Shown here piece after piece: positions 5,805 to 64,000 of a DNA stretch of 64,000 bases. A model generated the notes under the pieces. The model saw nothing but the letters and a program-made list of their open reading frames with translations. It did no database searches and was not told the origin of the DNA. This DNA is from Anaerolineales bacterium. Lineage in GTDB: Bacteria > Chloroflexota > Anaerolineae > Anaerolineales > DRMV01. The DNA is taken from positions 567 to 64,566 of the forward strand of contig JALWJZ010000016.1 in assembly GCA_026996855.1 (NCBI GenBank), read 5' to 3'. Both the position numbers and the translations under genes were made by a program. The first letter of the stretch is position 1; each line of letters starts with the position of its first letter.

Positions 5805-5854
5805 CGGGGAGCCGTTGGAGAACGAAAACGAACGGTCACCTGACCGCCCGTTTT

Positions 5855-13000: not shown

Positions 13001-13520
13001 GGGCGGCACAAAGCCGCCCCTTTGTGCTGCCACTTCACCTTCACCAGCACCATCCGCACCACGGTGTGGTTTTTGAAAACATCGGTGGCCTCGTCGTACG
13101 CACCTCAGGTGAGCAGGGTGGGCCAGGCGTAGCCGGAAAAGTAGCGGCTTTCATGGCCGCTACTTTTTCCCTATCAGCACCGCCCGCACCACCACGTGGT
13201 TCTTGAAACCGCCCGTGATTTCGTCGTACTGGCCGTAGGTGAGCAGGGTGGGCCAGGCGTAGCCGGAAAAGTAGCGGCTTTCATGGCCGCTACTTTTTCC
13301 CCATCAGCACCGCCCGCACCACCACGTGGTTCTTGAAACCGCCCGTGGCTTCGTCGTACTGGCCGTAGGTGAGCAGGGTGGGCCAGGCGTAGCCGGAAAA
13401 GTAGCAGCTTTCATGGCCGCTACTTTTTCCCCATCAGCACCGCCCGCACCACCACGTGGTTCTTGAAACCGCCCGTGGTTTCGTCGTACTGGCCGCAGGT
13501 GAGCAAACTGGGCCAGGTGT
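13001..13520 (-). repeat. four tandem 130-bp orphan modules, each the last 33 codons of the sortase domain plus stop plus terminator hairpin
   Basis: Exact 130-bp period: ggccaggcgt/ggccaggtgt at 13121, 13251, 13381 and 13511, then aaccaggtgt at 13641 in the intact gene. A fifth unit (13521-13650) is the real 3' end of the 13550-18673 gene. Confidence 0.9.
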
Positions 13521-13549
13521 AGCCGGAAAAGTAGCGGCTTTCATGGCCG

Positions 13550-29437: not shown

Positions 29438-29535
29438 AGTGGTCAGTGAACAGGAGTGAGGGGTGAGCAGTCAGCAGTGGGCAGTCAGCGAACTGCCGAC
29501 CGCAGACCGCGGACTGCCGGCTGCTGATTGCCGAC
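29438..29535. repeat. heptamer tandem array (14 units) in the ilvC-leuA spacer
   Basis: agtggtc agtgaac .. agcagtc agcagtg ggcagtc agcgaac tgccgac cgcagac cgcggac tgccggc tgctgat tgccgac. Internal hairpin 29475-29485 / 29494-29504. Confidence 0.9.
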
Positions 29536-29539
29536 CGCG

Positions 29540-30576: not shown

Positions 30577-30680
30577 GTGGGGATGTGGAATGAATGGGGA
30601 TATGCGAATGAGCGGATATGCGAATGGGCGGATGAGCGAATATGCGAATATGCGGATATGCGAATGGGCGGATGGGTGGA
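30577..30680. repeat. octamer tandem array (about 13 units, T[AG][TG]GCG[AG]A) upstream of ilvC
   Basis: tatgcgaa tgagcgga tatgcgaa tgggcgga tgagcgaa tatgcgaa tatgcgga tatgcgaa tgggcgga tgggtgga. Confidence 0.9.
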
Positions 30681-35580: not shown

Positions 35581-35598
35581 GGGACACCTCCAGGAGGG

Positions 35599-35661
35599 AG
35601 TGGACAGTGGACAGTGGTCAGTGGTCGGCTAACGGCTATCGGCTATCGGCTATCGGCTAAC
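35599..35661. repeat. heptamer tandem array (9 units) in the ilvB-ilvN spacer
   Basis: agtggac agtggac agtggtc agtggtc ggctaac ggctatc ggctatc ggctatc ggctaac. Contains the ilvB stop (35650-35652). Confidence 0.9.
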
Positions 35662-37359
35662 CACTTCCCCCGCCGGCCTCCGAATCATCTCGTGCAGGGA
35701 GACACCCGAGGGCACCATGGGGAAGACGTGCTCCTCCTGTTCCACCACGAACTCCAGGACCACGGGGCCTGGATGTTCGCGGGCGAAGGCCACGGCCTGG
35801 GGAATCTGCCCCCGTTCCGTCACCCGCATGGCGGGGATGCCGTAGGCCTTCGCCAGTTGGACGAAATCCGGGTTGTGCATGAGCACCGCGGAGTAGCGTT
35901 TCTCGTAAAAGAGTTCCTGCCACTGCCGCACCATGCCCAGGTAGTTGTTGTTGACGATGACCACTTTCACGTTGGCCCCCTCCTGCACCGCGGTGGCCAG
36001 TTCCGCCTGGGTCATCTGGAAGCCGCCGTCGCCCTCGATGACCCACACCTCTTTTTCGGGATGGGCGAACCAGGCCCCGATGCCCGCGGGCAGGCCAAAG
36101 CCCATGGTTCCCAGCCCACCCGAGGTGATGAGCCGGTAGGGTTGTTCCAGTTTGTAGTACTGGGCGGTCCACATCTGATGCTGGCCCACCCCCGTGGCGA
36201 TGATGACCTCCTGGCCCGCGGTGGCCTTCCACAGGTCGTGGATGGCCTGGGCGGCCCGCAACGGTCCGGGCTGGTTGCGGTAGAGGATGTCCCGCCGGCG
36301 GGTATCGGCCTTCCAGGATTCGATTTGGTCCCACCAATCTTCGGGCTGTTTGGGTTCCACCAGGGGGATGAGGTCCTGCAGCACGGCCTTCAGGTCGCCC
36401 AGCAGGGCCACGTCCGCGCGCACGTTCTTGTGGATTTCCGCGGGGTCGATTTCCACGTGGATGACCTTCGCGTGGGGCGCGTAGGTCTCCAGTTTGCCCG
36501 TCACCCGGTCGTCGAAGCGCATCCCCAGCGCGATGAGCAGGTCCGCGTGCTGGATGGCCATGTTGGTGTAATACTCCCCGTGCATCCCCATCATCCCCAG
36601 GCTCAGGGGGTGGGACGCGGGCAGCACGCCCAGGCCCAGCAGGGTCATGGCCACGGGGGCCTGGAGTTTCTCCGCGAGTTGGCGCAGTTCTTCCATGGCC
36701 CCGGACATGAGCACGCCCTGCCCCGCGAGGATGACGGGCCGCTCCGCTTCCGCGATGAGCCGGGCCGCGCGTTCCAGGTCCTGGGGGTCGGCCTTTTCCG
36801 GGGGATGGTAGCCGGGCAGGTCCACCCGTTCGGGCCAGGACCATTCGGCTTCCTCAATCTGCGCGTTCTTGCACAGGTCGATGACCACCGGGCCGGGCCG
36901 TCCCGTGCGGGCGATGTGGAAGGCTTCCCGCACCACGCGGGGGATATCCTCTGCGCGGGTGACCAGGTAGTTGTGCTTGGTGATGGGCAACGTGATGCCC
37001 GTGATGTCCGTTTCCTGGAACGCGTCGCTCCCCAGGAGGGAAGCCGATACCTGGCCGGTAATGAAGACCACGGGGGACGAATCCATGCGGGCCGTGGCGA
37101 TGGCCGTGGTGAGGTTGGTCGCGCCGGGGCCGGAGGTGGCCATGGCCACGCCCACTTTGCGCCTGTGCCGCAGCGCGCGGGCGTAGCCGTCGGCCGCGTG
37201 GCCCGCGGCCTGCTCATGGCGGGTGAGCACGTGCTTCACGGGGTAATCCAGCATGGCATCGTACACGGGCATGATGGCCCCACCGGGGTACCCAAAGACC
37301 ACCTCCACGCCTTCCCGGATGAGGGCTTCCCACAGCAGGCGAGCACCGGACATCTTCAT
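35650..37359 (-). CDS. ilvB: acetolactate synthase large subunit
   Basis: MKMSGARLLWEALIREGVEVVFGYPGGAIMP..GGLGTMGFGLPAGIGA. ATG at 37359 follows GGAGGTG. Confidence 0.95.
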   Translation of the reverse strand: MKMSGARLLWEALIREGVEVVFGYPGGAIMPVYDAMLDYPVKHVLTRHEQAAGHAADGYARALRHRRKVGVAMATSGPGATNLTTAIATARMDSSPVVFITGQVSASLLGSDAFQETDITGITLPITKHNYLVTRAEDIPRVVREAFHIARTGRPGPVVIDLCKNAQIEEAEWSWPERVDLPGYHPPEKADPQDLERAARLIAEAERPVILAGQGVLMSGAMEELRQLAEKLQAPVAMTLLGLGVLPASHPLSLGMMGMHGEYYTNMAIQHADLLIALGMRFDDRVTGKLETYAPHAKVIHVEIDPAEIHKNVRADVALLGDLKAVLQDLIPLVEPKQPEDWWDQIESWKADTRRRDILYRNQPGPLRAAQAIHDLWKATAGQEVIIATGVGQHQMWTAQYYKLEQPYRLITSGGLGTMGFGLPAGIGAWFAHPEKEVWVIEGDGGFQMTQAELATAVQEGANVKVVIVNNNYLGMVRQWQELFYEKRYSAVLMHNPDFVQLAKAYGIPAMRVTERGQIPQAVAFAREHPGPVVLEFVVEQEEHVFPMVPSGVSLHEMIRRPAGEVVSR

Positions 37360-37373
37360 GGGGCACCTCCTTT

Positions 37374-37450
37374 TCGTTGGTGGTCGTTGGTCGGTGGTCG
37401 TCAGTCCACAGTTAACCATCGACTATCGACCGTCGACCATCGACCATCAA
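37374..37450. repeat. heptamer array (11 units) forming an imperfect palindrome across the ilvD stop
   Basis: tcgttgg tggtcgt tggtcgg tggtcgt cagtcca cagttaa ccatcga ctatcga ccgtcga ccatcga. Arms 37385-37405 / 37418-37438. Confidence 0.9.
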
Positions 37451-39115
37451 AATCGCGCCCTGGTCCGCGCTGGTGACGAAGTGGGCGTAGCGGCGCAGCC
37501 AGCGGCTGGTGGTGCGGGGCTGGAAAGGCGGCAGGGCCTCCAGCCGACGGCGGATTTCGTCGTCGGAAAGGTGGACGTCGATGCGCCGCGCGTCCAGGTC
37601 GATGGTGATGAGGTCGCCATTCTGCAGGGCCGCGATGGGGCCACGGGCCGCGGCCTCGGGACTGATGTGGCCCACGCACAGGCCGCGGGTGCCGCCGGAA
37701 AAGCGTCCGTCGGTGATGAGCGCGACCTTTTCCCCCAGGCCCATGCCCACGATGGCCGAGGTGGGCGCGAGCATCTCCTGCATCCCCGGCCCGCCCCGGG
37801 GCCCCTCGTAGCGGATGACCGCCACATCCCCCGGCTGCACTTCCCCGGCCAGGATGCCTTGCATGGCTTCTTCCTGGCTTTCGTAGATGCGGGCCGGGCC
37901 GGTGTGGCGGCGAATATGGGGGGCAACGCCTCCCGTTTTGATGACCGCGCCCTTGGGCGCCAGATTCCCGAAGAGCACCGCCAGGCCGCCATCGGGCCGC
38001 AAGGGGTCCTCCACGGGCCGGATGACCTGGGCATCCCGCACCCGGGCCTGGGCGATGTTCTCGGCCAGGGTCTTCCCCGTCACGGTGATGCGGTCGGGGT
38101 GCAGCAGGCCGTGCCGGGCCAGTTCCGCGAGCACCGCGGGCACGCCGCCCGCGGCGTGCAGGTCCTCCATGTGCCAGGGCCCCGCGGGGCTCATGTGGGC
38201 CAGGTAGGGGGTGCGGTCGGCCACCGCGTTGATGCGCTCCAGGGGGTAATCCAGGCCGGCCTCGTGCGCGAGGGCCAGCAGGTGGAGCACGGTGTTGGTG
38301 CTGCCGCCCAGGGCCATATCCAGGGCAAAGGCGTCGTCGATGGCTTCGGGGGTGATGATGTCCCGGGGCCGCAGGTCCCTCCGCACCAGGTCCATGATGC
38401 GGTGCCCGGCTTCCCGGGCCAGGGCTTCTCGTTCGGGGGATTGGGCCAGCGCGGTGCCGTTGTAGGGCAGCGCAATGCCCAGGGCTTCCATGAGGCAGTT
38501 CATGGAGTTGGCCGTGAACATGCCCGAACAGGAGCCGCACGCGGGGCAGGCCACGCGTTCCAGTTGGGCCAGTTCCTGCTCGGTGATGTGCCCGGCCTGG
38601 AGCGCGCCCACGCCCTCGAACACGCTGATGAGGTCCACCACCCGGCCGTCGGGCATCCGGCCCGCGGGCATGGGCCCGCCGGAGACGAACACCGCGGGGA
38701 TGTTCACCCGCACCGCGGCCATGAGCATCCCGGGCACGATTTTGTCGCAGTTGGGGATGGCCACCATGCCGTCGAACGCGTGGGCCTGGAGCATGGTTTC
38801 CACGCTGTCCGCGATGAGCTCCCGGGAGGGCAGGCTGTACTTCATGCCCTCGTGGCCCATGGCGATGCCGTCGTCCACCGCGATGACGTTGAACTCGAAG
38901 GGCACGCCCCCGGCTTCCCGGATGGCCTGCTTCACGATTTGGGCAAATTCCCGCAGGTGCACGTGGCCGGGGACGATGTCGGTGTAGGAATTCACCACCG
39001 CGATGAAGGGCTTGTGGAAATCCTCGGGGGATTGGATGGCTCCCGTGGCCCAGAGCAGCGCCCGATGGGGCGCCCGTTCGTAACCGTTCTTGATGATGGT
39101 GGAACGCATGGTCAT
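37412..39115 (-). CDS. ilvD: dihydroxy-acid dehydratase
   Basis: [42 protein letters not shown]. Confidence 0.95.
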
Positions 39116-41311: not shown

Positions 41312-41371
41312 ACGTCTTCTCCTCCTTCGTGAGGTTTTTGAGAATGAACGGCCAAAGGTCAGGCCAAGAAG

Positions 41372-41400
41372 GTTATACCCGCAAGAAGGGGATTTGACAA
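41372..41400 (-). promoter_or_regulatory. candidate sigma70 promoter of the BMP lipoprotein gene
   Basis: The minus strand reads TTGTCA - 17 nt - TATAAC. Confidence 0.5.
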
Positions 41401-41518
41401 GCCCGTCGGCCGTGGGGGAATTTACCCCATGGTTCCCCTTCCCCACCAGGGTGGAGAAGGGGAACCCTCCTGGATTCTGCCGTTTGCCCTTGGCCTGGTT
41501 CCATGGAGGAAACTCATC

Positions 41519-41545
41519 TTGACAATCCACCTGGTTGGGTATAAA
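41519..41545 (+). promoter_or_regulatory. candidate promoter of feoABC
   Basis: TTGACA (41519-41524) and TATAAA (41540-41545), but the spacer is only 15 nt. Confidence 0.3.
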
Positions 41546-52954: not shown

Positions 52955-53412
52955 GATGCGCCTTCCTCACCCAGAAGGTGGACATGGGGGAAATGGGGCC
53001 GCACCAAGCGGGCCAGCCGACGGTCTGCCGTCCAGAAAGGGGCCTGAAGACGCCGGGCCAGAGCCAGGTAATGGGCGTCGTATGTCGCGGGCAATCGCCA
53101 CTGGTGGGCTAGACGCAGGGCCTCCTGGTGGAGTTCCGGGTACGTCACCAGGTCGATGTCCAGACGCAACGCCGTTTCCAAGACCTGAAGGGCGCGCTCC
53201 AGGGAGAACAAATCTGCCCTCACATATCGGTAAACAGCATTGGAAATCTCGAAGAACATCAACGGCGGAGCCACCAGCCTTCGGCCTTCCTTTTGCCACC
53301 TGACCCAAAGACGGTCGGCGACTGGGCCTTCTTTTGAGTCAACCAACATCCGGACAACAAAACTGGCATCAAGGCAGATGGTCGAAGCCGAGGGCTTCCA
53401 TGATCTGAGCAT
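52951..53412 (-). CDS. PIN-domain toxin (VapC-like)
   Basis: Acidic residues in CLDASFVV, FFEISNA, TYDAHYLALA and FWTADRRL. Overlaps the antitoxin 3' end. Confidence 0.75.
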   Translation of the reverse strand: MLRSWKPSASTICLDASFVVRMLVDSKEGPVADRLWVRWQKEGRRLVAPPLMFFEISNAVYRYVRADLFSLERALQVLETALRLDIDLVTYPELHQEALRLAHQWRLPATYDAHYLALARRLQAPFWTADRRLARLVRPHFPHVHLLGEEGAS

Positions 53413-53698
53413 CGCGTTCCTCCCGCATTTGCCGAATGATTTCTTCAGGTGGAGGAAGTTGTCGGTCCCCCAGTTCTTTGCGTATTTGCGCACGCAAGGC
53501 CAGAATCCGCTCCAGGGTTTCCTCCCAGGCGGGTCGGGCTTCTCCCCCTTGCAAACGGCGATAGGCTTCATAGGACAGCATCACCACATAGGGCTGGCCG
53601 CTTCGGGCCACGATGATGACGTCCCCCTGTTCCGCGGCGCGGCGCATCCATTCGCCCAGCCGAATTCGGGCCTCGGTTGCACTGATAACCCGTTCCAT
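53369..53698 (-). CDS. Phd/YefM family antitoxin
   Basis: ISATEARIRLGEWMRRAAEQGDVIIVARSGQPYVVMLSYEAY. Confidence 0.8.
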   Translation of the reverse strand: MERVISATEARIRLGEWMRRAAEQGDVIIVARSGQPYVVMLSYEAYRRLQGGEARPAWEETLERILALRAQIRKELGDRQLPPPEEIIRQMREERDAQIMEALGFDHLP

Positions 53699-53765: not shown

Positions 53766-54854
53766 TCATTCCAGTGCGCGGGCAGCCGTGCGCACCATTT
53801 CGCCCAATGCGGTGATAAAGGCTGGGTCGTCGTTCAAAGACTCGGTGCGGCGCACCTGGACGCCCAAAGTGCGGGCCCGTTGTTGCAATTCGATGTCAAT
53901 GTCGTACAGGATTTCCACATGGTCACACACGAATCCAATGGGCACGACCAGGACCTCCCGCACACCCTGCCGGGCCAGGTCTTCGACCAGGTCGCCCACG
54001 TCGGGCCCCAGCCAGGGCACGGCCGAGGCGCCTGCGCTCTGGTAGGCCACATGCCACGCGTCCAGCCCCAGGTGCTCGGCCACCCGGCGCGCGCTTTCCC
54101 GAACCTCCTTGTCATAAGGGTCGCCCTGCTCCACCACCTTTTGAGGCAGGCTGTGCGCGGTGAAGACCACCACAGGCTTACTTCCCTCCCAGGCAGATAG
54201 GGCCTCTTCCACTTTGTGAGCCACAGCCTGGATGAAGCCTGGATAGGTGGACCAACGGGTGATGAAGACGCTGGTCAGCGGTCGGCGGTGGGCCGTGGGC
54301 AGTGGGCGGTCGGTAGTCGGCGGTGGGTAGTCAACAGAAGGCAAAGAGGGGGCATCGCCCTGTGTCCACACTTTTACTTCGCATCCGACCTCAGATTGCT
54401 GACTGCTCGCTGCTGATTGCTCCCAGCCTTCTGCTTGCGTCAAAGGCCGATACCCCTGGGCTTCCAGGGCTTTTTCCAGCGCCTGCCGGTAAGCGCCGAT
54501 GCTCATACGGGAATAATGGGGGGCCATGGGCAGGGCCACAATCCGGCGAAAGCCCTGGTTCAGGATGTCCGGAAGCACTTCGTGGATGTAAGGGTGCCAG
54601 TGGCGCATGCCCACGAAGGTTTTGAAGTGCGGCCCCAGATGTTGGTGCAGCCAGGCCTCCAGCGCCCGGGCCTGGGCCTGGGTGTGCTCCAGCAGGGGGG
54701 ATTTCCCGCCGATGAGGCGGTACCGTTCCCGCACTTCTTCCACCAACTCTTGGGGTGTGGGACGACCGTGGCGCACGTCCAGTAGATAAGGTTTGACATC
54801 GTCCAGGGAAAGGGGACCCCCGTAGGCGAGCAAGAAGACGGCGGTGGGTTCCAT
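53766..54854 (-). CDS. hemH: ferrochelatase (coproporphyrin ferrochelatase type) carrying a ~55-codon repeat-derived insertion
   Basis: VFLLAYGGP..RYRLIGGKSPL..AHSLP..VPIGFVCDHVEILYDID. 362 aa, against the ~310 aa I recall as typical. Confidence 0.9.
   Translation of the reverse strand: MEPTAVFLLAYGGPLSLDDVKPYLLDVRHGRPTPQELVEEVRERYRLIGGKSPLLEHTQAQARALEAWLHQHLGPHFKTFVGMRHWHPYIHEVLPDILNQGFRRIVALPMAPHYSRMSIGAYRQALEKALEAQGYRPLTQAEGWEQSAASSQQSEVGCEVKVWTQGDAPSLPSVDYPPPTTDRPLPTAHRRPLTSVFITRWSTYPGFIQAVAHKVEEALSAWEGSKPVVVFTAHSLPQKVVEQGDPYDKEVRESARRVAEHLGLDAWHVAYQSAGASAVPWLGPDVGDLVEDLARQGVREVLVVPIGFVCDHVEILYDIDIELQQRARTLGVQVRRTESLNDDPAFITALGEMVRTAARALE
54272..54422. repeat. arm-core-arm heptamer element inside hemH
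   Basis: Left arm, 9 units (tggtcag cggtcgg cggtggg ccgtggg cagtggg cggtcgg tagtcgg cggtggg tagtcaa). Then a ~50-nt unique core. Right arm cagattg ctgactg ctcgctg ctgattg. Confidence 0.9.
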
Positions 54855-54873
54855 CGTAACCTCCGTGAATAGG

Positions 54874-54908
54874 GGATTGGTGGTCAGCCGTCAGCGGACA
54901 GCGGACTG
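54874..54908. repeat. heptamer array (5 units) across the hemE stop and hemE-hemH spacer
   Basis: ggattgg tggtcag ccgtcag cggacag cggactg. Confidence 0.8.
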
Positions 54909-56005
54909 CTTCGCTCATGCACATATTCCACGACAAAGGCCACCTGGTCCGGGTCGGTTTCGGGAAGCACACCGTGGCCCAGGTTGAAGATGTGGCCTGC
55001 CTGGCCTCGGGCTTCTGCAAGCACCGCATCCGCCTGGCGGGCCAGTACCTCCCGTGGGGCCAGCAGGGCCACCGGATCCAGATTCCCCTGGATGGCGTGG
55101 TGGCCTCCAACCGCCTCCCAGGCCGCGCCCAGGGGTACCCGCCAGTCCACGCCGATGACCTCCGCATCCAGGTCATGGAAAAGGGGTAGCAGGCCTGCGG
55201 TGCCGGTGGAAAAGTAAATTCGAGGGACGCCCGTCACTTGCAATCCCCGCAGCAGGGCCTGGACGTGGGGTTTCACATAACGGGCATAGTCCCCAGGACT
55301 CAGGGCACCGGCCCAACTGTCGAAGATTTGCACCGCCTGCGCGCCGGCGTCGATCTGGGCCTTGAGGTAATCCAGCGTGACGCGGACCAGCCGCTTCATG
55401 AGGGCGTCCCAGGCCTGGGGATGGTGGTACATCCAGCGTTTGGTCTCGACGTAATGGCGGGAACTCCCGCCCTCGATGGCATAAGAAGCCACGGTGAAGG
55501 GCGCGCCGGCAAAGCCGATAAGGGGCGTTTGGGGGGCTTCAAGCCGTACCCGGCGCACCGTCTCGAAAACGAAGCCCAGGGCTTCGTGCACGTCCACCAG
55601 GGGGAGGGTTTCCACCCGGTCCGGCGTCAGGCGGGGTTCCAATACCGGGCCGCGCCCTTTCTCAAAACGCAACCTCAGCCCCAGCGCTTCCAGTGGAAGC
55701 AGGATGTCCGCGAAGAGGATGAGGGCATCCACGCCCAGACGCAGGGGAAGCAGCGTCACCTGGGCGGCCAGGTCGGGCTCGCGCATGAGTTCCAGCAGGC
55801 CGTAGCGCTCCCGCAGCGCCCGGTATTCGGGCATGTAACGCCCGGCCTGCCGCATGAACCACACCGGCGTGTAGGGTGTGGGCTGCCGATAGCACGCGGC
55901 GAGGAAGGGGGGAAGGCGGTCGGCGGACAGCGGACGGCGGACGGCGGTCGGCTGTCGGCTGTCAGCGGACGGCGGTCGGCGGTCGGCCGTTGGCGGTTTC
56001 AGCAT
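54884..56005 (-). CDS. hemE: uroporphyrinogen decarboxylase with a repeat-encoded N-terminal extension
   Basis: TPVWFMRQAGRYMPEY..SWAGALSP. The only SD-preceded start (GAGGAGG, ATG at 56005) lies upstream of 30 array-encoded codons. Confidence 0.9.
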   Translation of the reverse strand: MLKPPTADRRPPSADSRQPTAVRRPLSADRLPPFLAACYRQPTPYTPVWFMRQAGRYMPEYRALRERYGLLELMREPDLAAQVTLLPLRLGVDALILFADILLPLEALGLRLRFEKGRGPVLEPRLTPDRVETLPLVDVHEALGFVFETVRRVRLEAPQTPLIGFAGAPFTVASYAIEGGSSRHYVETKRWMYHHPQAWDALMKRLVRVTLDYLKAQIDAGAQAVQIFDSWAGALSPGDYARYVKPHVQALLRGLQVTGVPRIYFSTGTAGLLPLFHDLDAEVIGVDWRVPLGAAWEAVGGHHAIQGNLDPVALLAPREVLARQADAVLAEARGQAGHIFNLGHGVLPETDPDQVAFVVEYVHERSSPLSADG

Positions 56006-56112
56006 TCGTGTTCCTCCTCATGCATTCGCTCACTGCTGATGGCTGACTTGCTGACTGCTGATTGCTCACTGCCGTCTGCTCACCGCTGACCGCTCACTGC
56101 TGACCGCTGACT
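55912..56112. repeat. 13-unit G-rich array, 26-nt core with the hemE SD and ATG, then 12-unit C/T-rich array
   Basis: gtcggcg gacagcg gacggcg .. (55912-56002), and ctcactg ctgatgg ctgactt gctgact gctgatt gctcact .. (56029-56112). Confidence 0.9.
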
Positions 56113-57410
56113 GCCCCAAACGCTTCCCGCGCCGCCTCCAGCGTGCGTTCCAGGTGCTCCTCCTCGTGGGCCAGGGACATGAACGCGGATTCATACTGGG
56201 AGGGCGGGTAATAGACCCCACGGGCGGCCATCTCCCAGAACCAGCGGGCGAAACGCTTCGTGTCGGCCTGGCTCACCTCTTCCCATGTGGTGGGCGCGCG
56301 GTCCAGGAAGAACACGGTGAACATGGTGCCCACGTGCTGCACGGTGACCGGGACGCCCGCCTCTTCCGCCGCCTGCGCCAGGCCCTGGGCCAGCCGTTGG
56401 GTGCGGGCTTCCAGCGTCTCCCATACCCCCGGCTCCCGCAGGGCATCCAACGTGGCGATGCCCGCAGCCATGGCCAGGGGGTTGCCCGAAAGGGTCCCGG
56501 CCTGGTACATGGGTCCTGCCGGGGCCACGTAGCGCATGATGTCTTTGGGGCCGCCGTACGCGCCCACAGGCAGCCCGCCGCCAATGACCTTGCCCAAGGT
56601 GGTGATGTCGGGCCGGACGCCATAGCGCGCCTGCGCGCCGCCCAGGGCCACCCGGAACCCCGTCATGACCTCGTCGAAGATGAGGAGCGCGCCGTAGCGG
56701 TCGCACAGCGCGCGCAGGCCCTCCAGGAAGCCCGGTTGGGGCGGCACCACGCCCATGTTTCCGGCCACCGGTTCCACGATGACCCCCGCGATGTCCTGGC
56801 CATGGGCTTCGAAAAGGGCTTCTACCGCGGCCAGGTCGTTGTAGGGTGCGGTCAGGGTGTCCTGGGTGGTGCCGGGGGTCACGCCGGGGGAATCGGGCAG
56901 GCCCAGGGTGGCCACGCCGGAGCCAGCCCGAACCAGGAGCGCGTCCACGTGGCCGTGGTAGCACCCGACGAACTTGACGACTTTCGTCCGGCCGGTGACC
57001 GCGCGGGCCAGGCGGATGGCGCTCATGGTGGCTTCGGTGCCCGAATTCACGAAGCGCACCATTTCGATGGAAGGCACCATCTCGATGACCCGCTCCGCGA
57101 GGTCGATTTCCAGGCGGGTGGGCGCGCCGTAAGACGTACCCCGTTCCGCAGCCTGCTTCACCGCTTCCACCACTTTGGGGTGGGCATGCCCCAGGATGAG
57201 GGGTCCCCAGGAGAGCACGTAATCGATGTAGCGGTTACCGTCGGCATCCCACAGGTAGGGGCCCCGGGCCTTTTCGATGAACAGGGGGACGCCGCCCACG
57301 GCGCGGAAGGCGCGGGCCGGGGAATTTACCCCACCCGGGATGACTTCCTGGGCCTTCTCGAACAGGCGTCGGGACGTCTCCACGCGTAAAGGTCGGGTCA
57401 GGGCTTCCAT
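56094..57410 (-). CDS. hemL: glutamate-1-semialdehyde 2,1-aminomutase
   Basis: [33 protein letters not shown] at 57410 follows GAAGGAGGAG. Confidence 0.95.
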
Positions 57411-57424
57411 GGTGCTCCTCCTTC

Positions 57425-57466
57425 GGCTGTCCGCCCACTGCTGACTGCTCACCGCTCACTGCCCAA
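57425..57466. repeat. heptamer array (6 units, C-rich type) across the PIN stop and hemL upstream spacer
   Basis: ggctgtc cgcccac tgctgac tgctcac cgctcac tgcccaa. Confidence 0.8.
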
Positions 57467-57940
57467 CACTGTCTCCAGGTGAAAGTCCTCGGCGAAGGGG
57501 TTGACGAAATGCACGCCTTCGATGGTGCTGCCGATAGCGAAGTCCTCGGTGAAGACCAGGGGGATTTGGTGCATCCGGGCCACGGCCCAGATTTGGGCGT
57601 CCCAGTAGGAAAAGCGGTACCGCCGCACCCCGCGTATAGCCTCCAGCACCACGGTTTCGGTAACGGGCAGCACCCGGAACGTGCGGGCCAGGTCCTCCAC
57701 CAAAGCCTGGGCCTGTTCGGGCGAGAGAGCAGGCCGGAGTTTCCGGGTGACCGTGTTGAAAAATTCGCCCAGAATCTGCGTGCTGATGATGCCCAGGCCA
57801 TGCTGTACCAGGCCTTCCAACACTTGCAAGGCACGGGCCTGCTTCTCTGGCTCGGAGCGGTCGTAGGCATACACCAGGACGTTGGTATCCAGGAAGACAT
57901 TGTTCCACTTATTTGCGGGGCCAGCGAAGACGTTCTTCAT
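57449..57940 (-). CDS. PIN-domain toxin (VapC-like)
   Basis: [37 protein letters not shown]. Confidence 0.75.
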
Positions 57941-58187
57941 AGAGCTCCTCCCTGGTCCAGGTTCGTCCTCCGGGCACGGGACCTTGGCTCATCCACCATT
58001 CGGCGAAGGCTTTGAGCCGTTGCCAGGCTTCCTGGCGTTCCCGTTCCTCCAGCGCCTGGCGGAGATACAAATCCAGCGCCCGGCGGATGAGTTCGGCTTC
58101 GGAGACCTGAAGCAGCCGGGAAAGGGTCTTCAACCGCTGCTCCTGGTGGGGTTCTAGATAGATTTGCTTGCGCACCATTCGGGCCAT
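57909..58187 (-). CDS. ribbon-helix-helix (CopG/VapB-like) antitoxin
   Basis: KQIYLEPHQEQRLKTLSRLLQVSEAELIRRALDLYL. SD is GGAGGTG. Overlaps the PIN start. Confidence 0.7.
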   Translation of the reverse strand: MARMVRKQIYLEPHQEQRLKTLSRLLQVSEAELIRRALDLYLRQALEERERQEAWQRLKAFAEWWMSQGPVPGGRTWTREELYEERLRWPRK

Positions 58188-58201: not shown

Positions 58202-58222
58202 TACATCACATGTACATCACAT
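58202..58222. promoter_or_regulatory. 10-nt direct repeat tacatcacat-g-tacatcacat upstream of the RHH antitoxin (candidate operator)
   Basis: Two identical 10-mers with an 11-nt period, 15-35 nt upstream of ATG 58187, touching the hemA stop codon. Confidence 0.3.
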
Positions 58223-59520
58223 CATACCAGGCCCGAAGGGCCGCTGGCCCCGCGTTTTCCGTCTTCTTCCAACTCGAACAGGCGGGCCAGGGCTTGGGCG
58301 TAGGGCGCTTCGTGCCCCTCCTGGGCCAGGGACCGCAGGTTGCGGGCCGGGATTTGCAGCCATTTCTCCAGCAGGATGCGGGTGACCTCCTCCACCACCT
58401 CCTGGGTCTCGCCGTTGACGTGCAGGCGCTTCAGGGTGCGCCGGACCACGTCCTGGCGCAGGGCCTCGGCGCGACGGTGCAGGGCCGTGAGCAAGGGCGC
58501 CACCCGGCGGGCCTGCCACCACCGAAGGAATTCCGCCATCTCCTCCCGCAAGATGGTCTCGGCCTGAGGCACCGCGGCCCGACGTTGGGCCAGGCCGGCA
58601 TCCACCACGCCCCGCAGGTCGTCGATGTCGAACAGGCGCACCTGGGGCAGGTCGGCCAGCCGGGGGTCCACGTTGCGGGGCACGCCGATATCCACCATCA
58701 GCAACGGCCGCTCCCGCGCGGCCAGCACGGGCGCGGCCGCCTGGTAGGTGAGCACGGGCTGGGGCGCGGCCACCGCGGTAACGACCACATCAGCCCACAG
58801 GAGGGCCTCATGCCAGGCCTGCCAGGGGAAGGTACGGCCCTCCACTTCCCGGGCCAGGTCCTCGGCTCGCTGGGGGGTGCGGTTCATGACCGCCAGGTGC
58901 CGAAAGCCCAGGCTGTGCAGATGCCGGGCCACGGTGCGGGCCATGGCCCCCGCGCCCACCACCAGGGCCCTGTGCCTGGGCGAGGCGTGTTCCCGCACCA
59001 GGTGGGCCGCGGCCGAGCTGACCGAAGCCGGCGCACGGCCAATGGCCGTTTCCCGCCGCACCCGCTTGCCCGCGGTCACGGCCTGCTGGAACAGGCGGTG
59101 CAGGATGGGACCCACCACGCCGGTCCGTCGCGCGGCCTGCCAGGCTTCCCGCACCTGGCCCAGAATCTCGGGTTCGCCGAGAATCATGGAATCCAGGCCC
59201 GCGGCCACCCGGAAGAGGTGCCAGACCGCGTCCCGGTCCTCCAGGAGGTAGAGGTGTTCCTGTAAGGCCTGCAGGGAAAGCCCGGCCAAACGGTGCACCA
59301 GGGCGTTGTACCCCGCGTCCGCGGCCTGGGCCGACTCGGCCACCAGGTAAACCTCGAAGCGGTTGCAGGTGGAAAGCACCACGGCTTCGTTGGGATGGGG
59401 GCCTTCGCCCTGGAGCACGGCCTGCACCGCGGGCCAGAGGCGACTTTCCTCCACGGCCAGCCGTTCCCGCAACGCCACCGGCGCGGTGCGATGGTTCATG
59501 CCGTAAAGGACCACCTGCAT
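58222..59520 (-). CDS. hemA: glutamyl-tRNA reductase
   Basis: GMNHRTAPVALRE..VLSTCNRFEVY..VVGAGAMA. Confidence 0.92.
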   Translation of the reverse strand: MQVVLYGMNHRTAPVALRERLAVEESRLWPAVQAVLQGEGPHPNEAVVLSTCNRFEVYLVAESAQAADAGYNALVHRLAGLSLQALQEHLYLLEDRDAVWHLFRVAAGLDSMILGEPEILGQVREAWQAARRTGVVGPILHRLFQQAVTAGKRVRRETAIGRAPASVSSAAAHLVREHASPRHRALVVGAGAMARTVARHLHSLGFRHLAVMNRTPQRAEDLAREVEGRTFPWQAWHEALLWADVVVTAVAAPQPVLTYQAAAPVLAARERPLLMVDIGVPRNVDPRLADLPQVRLFDIDDLRGVVDAGLAQRRAAVPQAETILREEMAEFLRWWQARRVAPLLTALHRRAEALRQDVVRRTLKRLHVNGETQEVVEEVTRILLEKWLQIPARNLRSLAQEGHEAPYAQALARLFELEEDGKRGASGPSGLV

Positions 59521-59530
59521 GGGAACCTCC

Positions 59531-59607
59531 CAGCGGTCGGCAGTGAGCAGTGGGCAGTCAGCGGTGGGAAGTGGGCTGTGGGCGGTCGGCGGTTGGTGGA
59601 TGGTAGT
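59531..59607. repeat. 11-unit G-rich heptamer array (left arm flanking the four-helix-bundle gene)
   Basis: cagcggt cggcagt gagcagt gggcagt cagcggt gggaagt gggctgt gggcggt cggcggt tggtgga tggtagt. Confidence 0.9.
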
Positions 59608-59639
59608 AAAATTTGTGCAGATGGCATGCGAGGTGGGGT

Positions 59640-60008
59640 ATGGGGCGCATGCGGTCGCATCGTGATTTGGAAGTGTGGAAGCGTTCGGCCCAATTCGCGC
59701 AGCGGATTTACCAGGTGACCGCCCACTTCCCCGACCAGGAGAAATACAACCTGACTGCGCAACTGCGGCGGGCCAGCACGTCGATTCCCGCCAACATCGC
59801 CAAAGGCCATGGACGTCGCACCGAGGGCGCGTTTGCTTTGCACCTGGATATTGCCTTGGGTTCGCTGGCGGAAATCGACACGTTCCTGTACCTGGCGCAC
59901 CATTTGGGCTATCTCTCCCAAGATGTTTACGAAGAATTGCTGAACGAACTCACCATTATCCGTCGCATGCTGTACCGCCTCTACAACCGCGTCCAATCTA
60001 ACCGCTGA
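59640..60008 (+). CDS. four-helix-bundle protein (TIGR02436 / 23S rRNA intervening-sequence protein family, Avd-like)
   Basis: RDLEVWKRSAQFAQRIYQVTAHFPDQEKYNLTAQLRRASTSIPANIAKGHGR..ALGSLAEIDTFLYLA. The start could be 59649. Confidence 0.85.
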   Translation: MGRMRSHRDLEVWKRSAQFAQRIYQVTAHFPDQEKYNLTAQLRRASTSIPANIAKGHGRRTEGAFALHLDIALGSLAEIDTFLYLAHHLGYLSQDVYEELLNELTIIRRMLYRLYNRVQSNR

Positions 60009-61143
60009 CGGCCGACGGCCGACCGCCGACCGCCGTCTGCCGTCCGCTGACTGCTGCCGGCTGATACACACACAACGGGTCCCATTCCAGCGGGTCGCCG
60101 AAGACCGCGTAAGCCCGGGCGCGAGAGCCGCCGCAGACCTTGCGATACTCGCAGTAGCCGCACTTTCCCTTGAGTTGGTCGGGGTCCCGCAGGGCGCGGA
60201 AGAGGGGGTGGTTGCGGTAGACCTCCACAGGGTGATGGGTACGCACGTTGCCCGTCACGATGGGCAGGAACCCCGCGGGATAGATTTCCCCAATGTGGGA
60301 AACGAACATGATGCCCGACCCATCCCGGATGCCGAAGCCAAAACGGAGGCGTTTGGGCATCTCTCGATTGCCTTCGGCTTTGGCCCGCTGCAAGGCCACC
60401 CGACGGTAGTGATGGGCTTCCGTAGTCTTGATGGCAAAGGGCGCTTCCTTGGCAAAGTCGTACAGCCAGTTGAGCAGGTCCTCGGCCTGTTCTGGGGTGA
60501 TGTCGCCCAGCACCTTCCCCCGGCCCACCGGGACTAAGAAGAACACGCTCCAGCGCTCCACGCCCAGGTCCACCAAAAGGCGGCCGATGTTGGGGATGTC
60601 GTCATAAGTCTCCGCGCAAACTAAGGTGTTGATTTGCAAAGGGAGACCCGCCTCCTTGGCCCAGCGAATGGCCGCAACGGTTTGTTCGAAACTCCCTGGC
60701 ACCATGCGGATGGCGTCGTGGCGCTCGGGCGTGGAGCCGTCCAAACTCACCGACATCATCCACACGCCCACGTCTTTGAAGCGGTGGACCACGTCCCGGG
60801 TCAGCGCATAGGTGCCGCTGGGGGTGATGGCAGTGAGGAAGCCCCGTTCTACCGAAGCCTGAAGCAAATCGAAGAGGTCGGGCCGCTTGAGGGGGTCACC
60901 GCCGGTGAACACGATGTGGGGCTTGGGTTCCCCGAATTCCAGGAATCTGTCCAGCAGGGCCAGACCCTCTTCGGTGGTGAGTTCCAGGGGATGGCGATGG
61001 GGCTGGGCCTCGGCCCGGCAGTGGCGGCAGACCAGGTCGCAGGCCCGGGTGACTTCCCAGTAGATGAGCATGGGTGCCTTGTGAATGTCGGGCCGCTGGA
61101 AGGCCGGGGGCCGTTTGCCGTTGGTCGGGGAAGGACGTGCCAT
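59998..61143 (-). CDS. radical SAM/SPASM protein of the AhbD (heme b synthase)-like type
   Basis: WEVTRACDLVCRHCR radical SAM cluster, and C-terminal CGYCEYRKVCGGSRARA. The last ~19 aa (AAVSGRQTAVGGRPSAVSG) are array-encoded. Confidence 0.75.
   Translation of the reverse strand: MARPSPTNGKRPPAFQRPDIHKAPMLIYWEVTRACDLVCRHCRAEAQPHRHPLELTTEEGLALLDRFLEFGEPKPHIVFTGGDPLKRPDLFDLLQASVERGFLTAITPSGTYALTRDVVHRFKDVGVWMMSVSLDGSTPERHDAIRMVPGSFEQTVAAIRWAKEAGLPLQINTLVCAETYDDIPNIGRLLVDLGVERWSVFFLVPVGRGKVLGDITPEQAEDLLNWLYDFAKEAPFAIKTTEAHHYRRVALQRAKAEGNREMPKRLRFGFGIRDGSGIMFVSHIGEIYPAGFLPIVTGNVRTHHPVEVYRNHPLFRALRDPDQLKGKCGYCEYRKVCGGSRARAYAVFGDPLEWDPLCVYQPAAVSGRQTAVGGRPSAVSG
60001..60063. repeat. 9-unit C-rich heptamer array (right arm flanking the four-helix-bundle gene)
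   Basis: accgctg acggccg acggccg accgccg accgccg tctgccg tccgctg actgctg ccggctg. Confidence 0.9.
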
Positions 61144-61161: not shown

Positions 61162-61273
61162 GGGCCGTTGGCCGGCAGCCGTTGGCCGTTGGTGGAAAGC
61201 AGTCGGCGGTCAGCGGACGGCGGTCGGCCGTCGGCCGTCGGCTGACTGCTCACCGCTCACTGCTGACCGCCGT
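61162..61273. repeat. 16-unit heptamer array forming a near-palindrome in the hemQ / radical SAM spacer
   Basis: gggccgt tggccgg cagccgt .. cggcggt cggccgt cggccgt | cggctga ctgctca ccgctca ctgctga ccgccgt. Confidence 0.9.
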
Positions 61274-61909
61274 AATAATCGGTGTATCCCGCAAGGTGAA
61301 CTTGCGGGCCTCGGTGCTGCGCAGGTCCTGGACCAAATCCGAGAACTGGACCACGTCGTCGGTTTCGTAGACCACGACGAACTCCTGGTCCTGCACGCCA
61401 AAGGAGTACAGCAGGAGTTGCAGAATCTCGGGGTACTGCCGGCCCACCCGGATGTGTTCGTTCATCATGCCCTGGCGGGCATCCCGGCTCATCAGGTACC
61501 ACTCGGCCGTCTTGACGAAGGGGTACACGATGAGGTAGCGCTTGCGGACTTCCCCGAAGGGGTCGATTTCCTGGGGCGAACGGCCTTTCGCATAGATGGA
61601 GGGTTTGGTCACGCCCCACAGGGTGAGGGGCACTTCGGCATAGGGGTGCAGCGGTTCAAAGGCCCGGGCGAAGCCGGTGAAGAACCGGGCCGGGGTTTCG
61701 GGGTCTTCGTAGGGAATCGCGCACCAGAGGAGCACGTCGGCCTCGTGGCGGCTGGGGAAGACCTGGTACAGGTAGCGCCGCGGGGCCGCCTCGGCCAGGG
61801 CTTCCACCACCTGTTGCAGAAGGCCCTCGCGGGCCGCAGGCTCCAACTGCCAGTACGCGGGGCGGAACTTGAGCAGGGTGAAGTGGTTCAGCGAGCGTCG
61901 TTCAGCCAT
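61250..61909 (-). CDS. hemQ: coproheme decarboxylase (HemQ/ChdC, chlorite dismutase family)
   Basis: [38 protein letters not shown] is AGGAGG. Confidence 0.88.
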
Positions 61910-62877
61910 CGGGCCACCTCCTTGGCGTGATACGTGAGGATGAGGTCCGCGCCGGCGCGTTTGATGGCGGTGAGGATTTCCAGGGCCACCGCGCGCTCGT
62001 CCAGCCAGCCCCGCTGGGCCGCGGCCTTGACCATGGCGTACTCGCCGCTCACGTTGTACGCGGCCACCGGCACGGGGAAGGCCTCCCGCACGGCCCGGAT
62101 GACGTCCAGATACGCCAGCGCGGGCTTGACCATGACGATGTCCGCGCCTTCCGCGATGTCCAGGGCCACTTCCCGCAGGGCTTCCCGGGCGTTGGCCGGG
62201 TTCATCTGGTACCCCCGGCGGTCGCCGAACTGGGGCGGACTCTGGGCCGCGTCCCGGAAGGGGCCGTAGAAATGACTGGCGTACTTGGCTGCGTAGGCCA
62301 TGATGGGGATGTGGGCGTACCCGGCCTCATCCAGCGCGCGGCGGATGGCCGCAACCTGACCGTCCATCATCCCGCTGGGCGCGACCATGTCCGCGCCGGC
62401 CTGGGCATGGGTCACGGCCACCTTCCCGTAAATCTCCAGGGTCTCGTCGTTGACCACCTCGCCTTCCCGCACGATGCCGCAATGGCCGTGGTCGGTGTAT
62501 TCGCACATGCACACATCGGTGATGACCACCAGGTCGGGCACGGCCTGCTTGATGGCCCGGATGGCCTTGGGGATGATGCCCTCCGGGTCGAAGTTCTCCG
62601 TACCGATGGGGTCCTTGTGGGCTGGGATGCCGAAGAGGATGACCGCGGGGATGCCCAGGGCCGCGGCCTCCTCGGCTTCCCGCACGGCTTCGTCCACCGA
62701 AAGTTGGTAGACGCCAGGCATGGACGGAACCTCCCGGCGCACCCTTTTCCCATGAACTACGAAGAGGGGATAGATGAGGTCGTCCACCGTGAGCACGGTC
62801 TCCTGCATCATGCGCCGCAAGGCCGGGGTCCGGCGCAGACGCCGCAAGCGGGTTTGGGGGAAGGAGCCAAGGTGCAT
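61888..62877 (-). CDS. hemB: porphobilinogen synthase
   Basis: [33 protein letters not shown]. Confidence 0.95.
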
Positions 62878-62891
62878 GGGATACCTCCGGG

Positions 62892-63059
62892 GAAGTGGAC
62901 AGTGGACAGTGGTCAGTGGTCAGTGAACAGTGAACAGTGGTCAGTGGCGGTGGCGGTCGGCAGTCGGCTATCTGCTGTCTGCTATCTGCTGTCGGCTATC
63001 TGCTGTCTGCTATCTGCTATCTGCTCACTGCTGACGGCTGTCCGCTGACCGCTCACTGC
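62892..63059. repeat. 24-unit heptamer array in one uninterrupted register (hemD 3' end / hemB upstream)
   Basis: gaagtgg acagtgg acagtgg tcagtgg .. agtcggc | tatctgc tgtctgc tatctgc tgtcggc .. tgaccgc tcactgc. Confidence 0.95.
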
Positions 63060-64000
63060 TTCTACCAGTCCTTCCATGGTGTACTGCTGGGCCACGGCGT
63101 GGACGGGCAGGCCGGCCTCGCGCGCGGCCCGGGCGGTGATGGGGCCGATGCACACCACCCGCACGCCGGGCGGCAGGGGCCGTCCCCCCAGGGCCTGGAC
63201 GAAGCCCTGCACCGTGGACGGGCTGGTGAAGGTCACCACGTCCACCTCGTCCAGCGGGGGCGGCGTATCGGGCGGGGCCACTAAGGTGCGGTAGGCCACC
63301 ACCTCGTCCACCTGGGCGCCCCGGCTCTGGAGGATTTCCCGCAGCGTGGGCCGGGCCCGGTCGGCCCGGGCCAGCAGGATGCGCAACCCCCGCACGTCGC
63401 CCAGGGCATCGGCCAGGGCTTCGGCCACGTAAGCCGGGGGGATGAGGTCCGGCTCCCGGCCCTGGGCCTGTAAGGCCTTCGCGGTGGCGGGGCCGATGAC
63501 GGCGATGCGGACGTCCGCGGGCACTCGCAGGCCCAGGGCCTGAAGTCGGTTCCACACGAAGCGCACGCCGTTGGCCGAGGTCAAGACCAGCCAGTCGTAC
63601 CCGCCCCGGCTCAGGCGGTGCAGGGCCTGGTCCAGGGGTCCCCAGTTTTCGGGCGGCGCGATGCGGATGGTGGGGTAGAGCACAGGCTCGTACCCTGCCT
63701 CCCGCAGGCGGGCCAGCCATGCCTCGGCCTGCTCCGGGGGCCGGGTGATGAGGACGCGGAGCGGACGGCGGTCGGCAGTCGGCAGTCGGCTGTCCGCTGT
63801 CGGCTGTCCGCTGACCGCTGCCTGCTGACCGCTGCCTGCTGACTGCGCACTGCGCACTGCGGACTGCCCACTCCGCACCTGCATCGCCAATTCCCGTCCC
63901 AACCCCTCCGCTTCCTCCATCGGGGCCTGGCCCCGGACGCGATAGGGCGTGCCGTCGGCCGCGACGTACAGGGCGGTGAGGGTGAGGGTTCCTCCCTGCA
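62982..64000 (-). CDS. hemD: uroporphyrinogen-III synthase, continuous with a HemC (porphobilinogen deaminase) C-terminus through a repeat-encoded linker; 5' partial
   Basis: LRVLITRPPEQAE..WLVLTSANGV..VTFTSPSTV is HemD. The frame stays open upstream of M at 63920 to nt 64000 (..TLTALYVAADGTPYRVRGQAPMEEAEGLGRELA, HemC-like). Confidence 0.8.
   Translation of the reverse strand, partial: QGGTLTLTALYVAADGTPYRVRGQAPMEEAEGLGRELAMQVRSGQSAVRSAQSAGSGQQAAVSGQPTADSRLPTADRRPLRVLITRPPEQAEAWLARLREAGYEPVLYPTIRIAPPENWGPLDQALHRLSRGGYDWLVLTSANGVRFVWNRLQALGLRVPADVRIAVIGPATAKALQAQGREPDLIPPAYVAEALADALGDVRGLRILLARADRARPTLREILQSRGAQVDEVVAYRTLVAPPDTPPPLDEVDVVTFTSPSTVQGFVQALGGRPLPPGVRVVCIGPITARAAREAGLPVHAVAQQYTMEGLVEAVSGQRTAVSSEQIADSRQQIADSR
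63756..63881. repeat. 18-unit heptamer array translated as the hemC-hemD linker
   Basis: gcggagc ggacggc ggtcggc agtcggc agtcggc tgtccgc tgtcggc tgtccgc tgaccgc tgcctgc tgaccgc tgcctgc tgactgc gcactgc gcactgc ggactgc. Confidence 0.9.

Follow-up and report, generated by a model that had tools for sequence, protein, structure and literature searches.

A four-helix-bundle gene bracketed by inverted heptamer arrays in the heme gene cluster of an Anaerolineales bacterium

Results

A gene between two arrays

The DNA considered here, which we call the window, is a 64,000-nt stretch of an Anaerolineales contig (JALWJZ010000016.1) whose last 10 kb hold a minus-strand cluster of heme genes. Between the hemA and radical SAM genes of that cluster lies its only plus-strand gene, which encodes a small four-helix-bundle (4HB) protein of the PF05635/TIGR02436 (S23p) family and is bracketed by two tandem arrays of 7-nt units, one G-rich and one C-rich, in inverted orientation. 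We refer to the gene and its two array arms together (59531-60063) as the cassette; the coordinates of its parts are collected in Table 1. Our main finding is that the same layout recurs around members of this protein family across phyla, and we read the cassette, with some reserve, as an element of the type known from the intervening sequences (IVSs) of 23S rRNA.

The family assignment is secure: the 4HB protein scores 128.6 bits against PF05635 (cut-off 33.8) and 123.7 bits against TIGR02436 (cut-off 24). Its open reading frame (ORF) likely starts at the ATG at 59640, judging from the position of the first ATG and from homologues, and stops at 60008, the mechanical ORF beginning at a TTG at 59613; the resulting length of 122 aa is also that of the closest database relatives. 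Among known structures the protein matches 2GSC (Xcc0516), a pentameric entry of five chains, over residues 4-117 at E = 3.1e-24, and 2RLD, an entry likewise with five chains, at E = 1.2e-8. Judged by sequence comparison, it is a homologue of pentameric four-helix-bundle structures. The motif R-x3-S-x3-N-x2-E (RRAxxSIPANIAEG) is represented by R44, S48 and N52, with the final E replaced by K (NIAKG).

The left arm begins immediately past the Shine-Dalgarno sequence of hemA (CCTCC as read on the plus strand). The right arm contains the 4HB stop codon and, on its opposite strand, codes for the ~19 C-terminal residues of the radical SAM protein. The 4HB ORF overlaps the convergent radical SAM ORF (59998-61143, minus strand) by 11 nt. 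The arms pair with an energy of -94 kcal/mol, compared with -64.7±4.6 kcal/mol for shuffled arms, and the minimum-energy fold of 59521-60075 closes on both arms with the 4HB ORF looped out. Shuffling the order of the units within the arms leaves the pairing energy unchanged, as expected for array-type complementarity. The arms are thus predicted by folding to form a stem of about 60 bp. A preliminary description of the window, made from the letters alone, had reported the family of the gene, its status as the only plus-strand gene of the heme cluster, the 11-unit and 9-unit arrays as inverted repeats, the stop codon within the right arm and the 11-nt overlap; all of these hold, with the coordinates of the arms confirmed.

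Searches for other known elements returned little. Only two tRNAs reach Rfam gathering thresholds, there is no rRNA in the window, and PADLOC models of anti-phage defence give no match at an E of 0.01 or better. The Rfam model Chloroflexi-1 matches the right arm with 22.5 bits, where 80 are required (E = 0.63); we rejected this match as chance level, together with miRNA-like matches on other hairpins. No second copy or fragment of the 4HB gene was found in the window by tblastn at E below 0.1.

The layout of gene plus inverted arrays across the family

The 4HB protein belongs to a large family, with 19,426 clusters (at 50% identity) matching it at an E of 1e-3 or better. From the matches listed for a search pattern in species-representative genomes, we fetched 80 family loci, and we scored 84 homologous loci overall; the phyla sampled include Bacteroidota, Acidobacteriota, Planctomycetota, Chloroflexota, Desulfobacterota and others. 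This sampling is unbiased towards arrays because the search pattern lies within the protein. Two loci serve to illustrate the outcome. In L005, from an organism of 70% G+C, the homologue is 60% identical and separates the E3 gene from the E1 gene in a 2-oxoacid dehydrogenase operon; it is bracketed by AAGGAGC-type and GCTTCCT-type arrays, the only arrays initially detected in its 20 kb. In L010, a 63%-identical homologue is accompanied by GAGAAGT and ACTGACC arrays.

Averaged over 78 loci, sequence self-identity at a lag of 7 nt climbs to 0.46, from a background of 0.25, within the 35 nt that end ~15 nt before the start codon, and does so again in the 35 nt past the stop codon, with no peak at the gene borders for lags of 5, 6, 8 or 9 in the same loci. 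A fixed detector found an array within 200 nt upstream in 54/84 loci, downstream in 54/84, on both sides in 46/84 and on either side in 62/84. The background, taken from 530 kb of loci chosen regardless of the family, is 0.0156 arrays per 230-nt window, so that the gene borders are enriched about 40-fold (P~1e-75). Thus, the arrays that the preliminary description proposed to look for beside other family genes are indeed found there, and they are about 40 times rarer elsewhere. Where a contig carries a second family member, this too is flanked by arrays, of different heptamers, and an independent sample of viral contigs gives an upstream array in 33 of 41 loci and arrays on both sides in 21 of 41.

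The two arms are also complementary. In 34 of the 46 doubly flanked loci, the upstream consensus agrees with the reverse-complemented downstream consensus at 6-7 of the 7 positions, and arm pairs are stabler than shuffles at z below -3 in 45 of these 46 (median z -6.9). Arms are typically 40-44 nt long, which corresponds to 5.6-6.4 units; the median distance is 22 nt from the end of the upstream arm to the start codon and 3 nt from the stop codon to the downstream arm. These loci show the arrangement of a gene within inverted heptamer arrays to be a property of the PF05635 family across phyla. A few family loci depart from the inverted orientation: in L059 the flanking arrays (5793-5944 and 6353-6482) are direct, with GGGACTA on both sides, and L206 and L207 carry palindromic units of AACGTTG type.

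As for context, 72 loci could be evaluated: in 53 of them the gene runs in the same direction as the ORFs on either side, and in only 5 is it antisense to both. The median gaps to the neighbours are 67 and 50 nt, and the cassette therefore fills the spacer within a directon. Universal 23S/16S motifs are absent from all of L001-L091, with none of the 80 genomic homologue loci in an rRNA operon, so a non-rRNA context is the rule in that sample.

History of the insertion

The order hemA-4HB-radical SAM is present in L001-L004, whose proteins are 97% identical to those of the window, and the more distant L009 is syntenic, with 69% identity for the 4HB protein, 66% for HemA and 88% for the radical SAM protein. 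The ratio of nonsynonymous to synonymous substitution rates is 0.11 and 0.17 for the 4HB gene, as against 0.16 and 0.34 for hemA. Given that this ratio is no higher than that of hemA, and given the synteny, we conclude that selection has retained the gene and that its inheritance has been vertical. The arrays are less constant: the left arm has about 17 units in a 97%-identical relative versus 11 in the window, which shows that array length changes quickly. In L009 the right flank (1824-1957) consists of a G-rich and then a C-rich array, giving three arms rather than two.

Relatives that lack the insertion, a comparison called for in the preliminary description, share the cluster order and have neither the 4HB gene nor vapBC (L092-L094, radical SAM protein 75-79% identical; L172 and L173, HemL 78%; L175, HemL 76%). 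Their cluster spacers measure -19 to 130 nt, the radical SAM-to-hemA spacer 44-130 nt, and over up to 21 kb they contain essentially no heptamer arrays except one small hairpin in L175. The radical SAM protein has 361-363 aa in these relatives versus 381 in the window, where the right arm supplies the extra ~19 residues. On this evidence we place the insert at about 59521-60057, with boundaries that match the outer ends of both arrays. Since these relatives have compact spacers, no 4HB gene and almost no arrays, we conclude that the gene and the arrays entered in the window's lineage. The hairpin in L175 (7517-7560) is an inverted pair of 3+3 units (GGACGAT / ATCGTCC) in the hemQ-radical SAM spacer and could represent an array hairpin that is just emerging or has all but disappeared.

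The heptamer unit and its link to the protein

The heptamer varies from locus to locus (GGTGGAC, GTGATCA, AGTGATA, GGGGCTA, GTTTTCG and so on), and units aligned by rotation nevertheless share a core, R-Y-N-R-G-K-R, that holds 4.54 bits, as against 3.33±0.13 for random heptamers matched in composition. The published units GGGAATC, GGGGAYT/STRR and TAACTGA fit this core when rotated by hand (to ATCGGGA, AYTGGGG and ATCAGTT, respectively), and so does the published unit GTGATTA. Furthermore, the unit follows the protein: heptamers that agree at no fewer than 6 of 7 positions are found in 39-45% of protein pairs that are 60-90% identical and in 3-7% of pairs below 50% identity, a trend that persists among pairs of similar G+C. 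Because heptamer similarity tracks protein identity in this way, the gene and its repeat unit have been inherited or adapted together. Arrays without an ORF resemble gene-flanking arrays at 6-7 of 7 positions in 38% of comparisons within a contig versus 4.8% between contigs, a difference to which residual composition effects may contribute.

Other heptamer arrays in the window

Self-identity at lag 7 reaches at least 0.68 at 531 positions of the window, compared with 0-45 positions for lags of 5, 6 and 8-11, and a second detector found 20 arrays covering 1.8% of the window versus 0.8 arrays in shuffles. These arrays consist of several head-to-tail copies of 7-nt units, as in the intergenic tandem heptamer arrays of other bacteria, and some run in frame through coding sequence. 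Most units fit RGTSRRC, as do those of the cassette arms. Arrays without an ORF lie in the spacers of the heme and ilv-leu operons and also occur in frame in coding sequence (Table 1). The preliminary description had listed further arm/core/arm sites with non-coding cores at 54272-54422, 55912-56112, 61162-61273 and 62892-63059; the sites exist, and not all of them are non-coding, the first being an insert in hemH. Its list can be extended by sites at 29444-29539, 37371-37456 and 63749-63885, the last of which is coding.

Several arrays thus contribute residues to proteins. The insert in hemH separates the two Pfam-matched halves of ferrochelatase, and the HemH proteins of L172 and L175 lack it. 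The G-rich arm of the hemL/hemE hairpin encodes an N-terminal tail of HemE of ~30 aa (55906-56005, minus strand), and the hemC-hemD linkers of relatives are unrelated to the array-encoded linker of the window. Array insertions in hemH, in the hemC-hemD linker and in the tails of HemE and the radical SAM protein are the behaviour of invasive palindromic DNA. The ORF-less arrays fit a picture of a cassette plus putative non-autonomous derivatives.

Three hairpins of the heme cluster (54255-54430, 55890-56130 and 62875-63070) are far stabler as plus-strand than as minus-strand RNA (for example -144.6 versus -101.0 kcal/mol) because their mismatches are G·U on the plus strand, which is antisense to the heme genes. 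This bias could reflect selection or a C-to-T bias on the non-template strand.

Table 1. Parts of the cassette, other heptamer arrays and genes of the heme cluster in the window
Feature	Position	Strand	Description
Left arm	59531..59607	+	77 nt; 11 G-rich heptamer units (AGTGRGC / GGTCGGC type)
Presumed 5' untranslated region	59608..59639	+	32-nt spacer from left arm to 4HB start codon
4HB gene	59640..60008	+	122 aa; PF05635/TIGR02436
Right arm	60001..60063	+	63 nt; 9 C-rich heptamer units, reverse complement of left arm
Two adjacent arrays	35587..35682	+	AGTGGAC x4 and TCGGCTA x5, mutually non-complementary
ORF-less array hairpin	29444..29539	+	ilvC-leuA spacer
ORF-less array hairpin	37371..37456	+	ilvD-ilvB junction (TGGTCGT / ACCATCG)
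Array hairpin	54264..54422	+	in frame inside hemH; extra ~56 aa
Single G-rich array	54865..54910	+	hemE-hemH spacer
ORF-less array hairpin	55899..56119	+	hemL/hemE
Single C-rich array	57423..57465	+	vapC (PIN)/hemL
ORF-less array hairpins	61163..61273	+	radical SAM-hemQ spacer
ORF-less array hairpin	62882..63064	+	hemB-hemCD spacer (AGTGGAC arm / GTCTGCT arm)
Array hairpin	63749..63885	+	in hemC-hemD fusion ORF; encodes interdomain linker SGQSAVRSAQSAGSGQQAAVSGQPTADSRLPTADRRP
hemH	53766-54854	-	
hemE	54884-56005	-	
hemL	56094-57452	-	
vapC/PIN	57449-57940	-	
vapB/ribbon-helix-helix	57909-58187	-	
hemA	58222..59520	-	glutamyl-tRNA reductase; flanking host gene
Radical SAM/SPASM gene	59998..61143	-	381 aa; TIGR04053, AhbD-like; flanking host gene
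hemQ	61250-61909	-	
hemB	61888-62877	-	
hemC-hemD fusion	62982-64000	-	ORF open to window end

Discussion

The association of PF05635 genes with inverted heptamer arrays, taken together with the cassette-free relatives, leads us to favour, with modest confidence, the view that the window carries an IVS-type cassette, in which an S23p/PF05635 gene lies within inverted heptamer arrays, and that it represents a lineage-specific insertion into the radical SAM-hemA spacer of an ancestrally compact heme operon. The closest counterparts are the ORF-bearing IVSs of 23S rRNA in Coxiella burnetii, Leptospira, Brucella and Xanthomonas, which share with the cassette a PF05635 protein whose ORF lies within terminal inverted repeats that form a long stem; ORF-less hairpin forms exist in both cases. 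In Coxiella, three or four GACAGAT repeats precede the S23p ORF, the terminal stem measures 28 bp and the first repeat is where RNase III cleaves (PMC4990558), so that the IVS-like resemblance proposed in the preliminary description extends to tandem heptamers upstream of the gene. The differences are that the window element lies in the spacer of an mRNA operon, antisense to it, rather than in helix 25 or 45 of 23S rRNA, and that its arms are arrays of 9-11 units instead of a 28-bp stem. We classify it accordingly as an IVS-type S23p cassette outside rRNA, with heptamer-array arms.

A number of observations weigh against this interpretation. At the cassette itself, codon 55 (59802-59804) carries a Glu-to-Lys change (E55K) at a near-invariant residue of the NIAEG motif, where the 97% and 69% identical orthologues keep Glu, and a promoter and terminator scan of 59200-60400 found none, including no sigma-70-like promoter for the 4HB gene. 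The cassette is antisense to its operon, the rare orientation (5/72 family loci), and has been stable at the radical SAM-hemA site over a long divergence (66-69% protein identity). Signs of transposition are missing as well: the ORFs tested across 28-64 kb contain no transposase, integrase or reverse transcriptase domains, as the preliminary description had noted for the neighbourhood, and inspection by eye revealed no target-site duplication at the ends of the cassette or of the hemH insert, a check limited by the high divergence of relatives without the cassette. Some arrays of the window are unlike the cassette arms (TCGGCTA, ACCATCG, ATCTGCT), and 22 of the 84 homologous loci have no array by our detector. 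Finally, arm duplexes favour the sense strand in 29 of 46 loci, which is not significant (p = 0.08), and pairing could therefore matter in DNA rather than in RNA.

The observation of the preliminary description is confirmed and its interpretation partly supported, in that the core reading of an IVS-like, gene-bearing inverted-array element with ORF-less relatives is upheld, whereas two further ideas, that the cassette is the master copy of the repeat elements and that it is currently mobile, are unproven. On the first, no ORF remnants are seen in the ORF-less cores and some arrays use other heptamers. On the second, the element has been inherited vertically under purifying selection since the lineages of 66-69% identity split.

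How such a cassette might work can be pictured by analogy with Coxiella. The stem of a cassette transcript would be a substrate for RNase III, leading either to excision of the ORF loop or to cutting of the host transcript, and such processing would be the most economical expectation for co-directional operon cassettes because the S23p ORF of the Coxiella 23S IVS is itself preceded by GACAGAT repeats. The pentameric protein, for its part, may recognise the repeat unit, possibly with one unit per subunit. The conserved core of the heptamer, its co-variation with the protein and the homology of the latter to the nucleic-acid-associated Avd pentamers all suggest recognition of this kind, and the match between five subunits and arms of ~5-6 units is offered as a suggestion. 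Recognition by the pentamer could then help to maintain or spread the arrays, and the ORF-less hairpins in the heme and ilv-leu spacers and at permissive in-frame positions would be non-autonomous relatives of such cassettes.

An alternative that we consider unlikely is that the 4HB protein is not part of a mobile element at all and instead acts as a resident regulator. According to this view, it would be a nucleic-acid-binding factor of the host, the arrays its operators or RNA sites and the ORF-less arrays its regulon, with the gene tuning its own cluster. The purifying selection on the gene and its vertical inheritance at the site are in line with such a role, as is the position of the arrays next to the Shine-Dalgarno sequences of downstream genes, and the conserved core and the co-variation of protein and heptamer suggest specific recognition. 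There is also a precedent in Nostoc, where heptamer repeats affect recF/recO expression and an unidentified heptamer-binding partner has been postulated (10.1101/2022.06.06.494920). Against a regulator stands the occurrence of the gene-plus-arrays unit in unrelated contexts, including a 2-oxoacid dehydrogenase operon, cas loci, 23S rRNA and viral contigs. In close relatives, moreover, the same heme cluster operates with no such gene and almost no arrays, and the in-frame arrays in hemH and in a protein linker are hard to take as operators.

Less probable still is the converse, in which the arrays matter to the host and the gene does not. The arrays would then be beneficial RNA or DNA structures, such as intercistronic processing sites, stabilisers or REP/BIME-like insulators, born by slippage at any place that profits from them, with the 4HB gene a passenger prone to settle in the loops of their hairpins. 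That ORF-less hairpins far outnumber gene-bearing ones in the window and that arrays also occur at loci without any family member can be cited in favour, as can the established fact that rRNA IVSs replace the tips of hairpins (PMC4990558). However, the gene-flanking pair is the only set of arrays in 12-20 kb in many genomes (L005, for example), and we therefore take the arrays to travel with the gene rather than to be pre-existing targets. The co-variation of heptamers with the protein is likewise difficult to reconcile with a passenger, and several of the heme-cluster hairpins are no stabler than shuffles on the mRNA strand.

We also considered whether the arrays could be neutral, slippage-prone microsatellites that flank the gene by coincidence. 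Among the tandem repeats of prokaryotic intergenic DNA, heptamers are the commonest (PMC6344855), and unit number does differ between close strains, but coincidence is very improbable and we count it as already refuted by the enrichment exactly at the gene borders, by its replication in the collection of viral contigs and by the complementarity of the arms in 45 of 46 loci, which slippage alone does not explain. Least credible of all, and rejected, is that the gene is the Avd accessory gene of a diversity-generating retroelement or a remnant of one, since its Avd similarity is weak (PF22296, 26.3 bits; NF033474, 25 bits; PHROG 3206, E = 3.8e-11), below the cut-offs of the curated models (40 and 80 bits, respectively) and far inferior to the PF05635 score, with no reverse transcriptase domain in the ORFs tested and no pair of template and variable repeats seen near the gene. 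The distant relationship to Avd noted in the preliminary description does stand: Avd (bAvd) has a distantly homologous pentameric four-helix-bundle fold and works with nucleic acid and a reverse transcriptase.

Returning to the IVS-type cassette, two further kinds of element invite comparison. RAYT/REPIN systems consist of a tyrosine transposase gene flanked by inverted REPs and accompanied by many non-autonomous REPINs, the gene being vertically inherited and under purifying selection. They resemble the cassette in that a single gene is bracketed by inverted copies of a repeat that is also scattered, with no gene attached, over the intergenic DNA of the same genome; they differ in that the 4HB protein is a small bundle without a known nuclease or transposase fold and in that its repeats are tandem arrays of 7 nt rather than a fixed palindrome. 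Rickettsia palindromic elements are fixed sequences of 100-150 bp that sit in frame in genes and have no associated four-helix-bundle gene. Here too palindromic insertions are tolerated in frame (in hemH, the hemC-hemD linker and the radical SAM and HemE tails), but the insertions of the window are heptamer arrays, a kind of repeat associated with a four-helix-bundle gene family.

Intergenic heptamer arrays have themselves been described repeatedly. Xanthomonas genomes contain 70-75 convergent inverted pairs of GGGAATC arrays each (PMC4692102), and arrays are known in cyanobacteria (STRR/GGGGAYT) and in Beggiatoaceae (TAACTGA) (PMC4679880). They share with those studied here the tandem 7-nt units, the frequent convergent inverted pairs and the rapid variation in length, and the difference is that the arrays of the window and the family bracket a specific gene family. 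The papers on heptamers propose G-quadruplexes, translational effects or slippage, with no mention of S23p or four-helix-bundle genes (PMC4692102, PMC4679880, PMC6344855). Scattered occurrences of PF05635 genes in cas loci have also been reported (PMC3936711). Full-text searching of an incomplete collection of the literature found nothing that links S23p/PF05635 to heptamer arrays beyond a passing remark on Coxiella. Thus, the protein family, the ORF-bearing rRNA IVSs and the paired inverted heptamer arrays are already known, and the family-wide association of gene and arrays appears to be undescribed.

A bolder proposal, which we hold to be less likely than not, is that PF05635 pentamers are the missing partner of prokaryotic heptamer arrays. 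The cassettes would be widespread self-propagating elements without a canonical transposase, the rRNA IVS would be one special case of them, and the ORF-less hairpins that they seeded would explain much of the excess of 7-nt repeats in intergenic DNA. To our knowledge, PF05635/S23p has been without a known function since 1993, and we know of no explanation for the origin of rRNA intervening sequences. If the proposal is true, three puzzles would be joined: the function of PF05635/S23p, the origin of rRNA IVSs and the bacterial excess of 7-base repeats. There are also practical consequences for genome annotation, as ORF callers often extend the ORFs next to cassettes into the arrays, and arrays can show up as in-frame insertions in enzymes. 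In addition, the arrays may break metagenome assemblies; many contigs with close relatives of the 4HB gene are only 0.6-5 kb long.

Other features of the window

The window has a G+C content of 63%, and its heme cluster runs in the order hemH-hemE-hemL-vapC-vapB-hemA-radical SAM-hemQ-hemB-hemCD. The best named matches of HemL are metagenome-assembled genomes of Chloroflexi, Anaerolineae and Ardenticatenia, at 70-74% identity. A vapBC-like pair encoding PIN and ribbon-helix-helix proteins (57449-58187, minus strand) is inserted between hemL and hemA and is missing from relatives that share the heme cluster. A second PIN-domain ORF (52951-53571, minus strand) lies between hemY and hemH.

The window also holds tandem repeats that are not heptameric. 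A 130-bp unit is repeated 4.5 times with 92% identity at 13045-13635, at or beside the 3' end of an ORF of 1707 aa (13550-18673, minus strand). An array of period 8 at 30578-30680 (ATATGCGA/TGCGAATG, about 9 copies) stands upstream of the probable ilvC start and belongs to a repeat class distinct from the heptamers. Lastly, a 39-bp unit occurs 2.2 times at 41148-41232, in the N-terminal region of an ORF for a Bmp/PnrA-like substrate-binding protein (40133-41530, minus strand).

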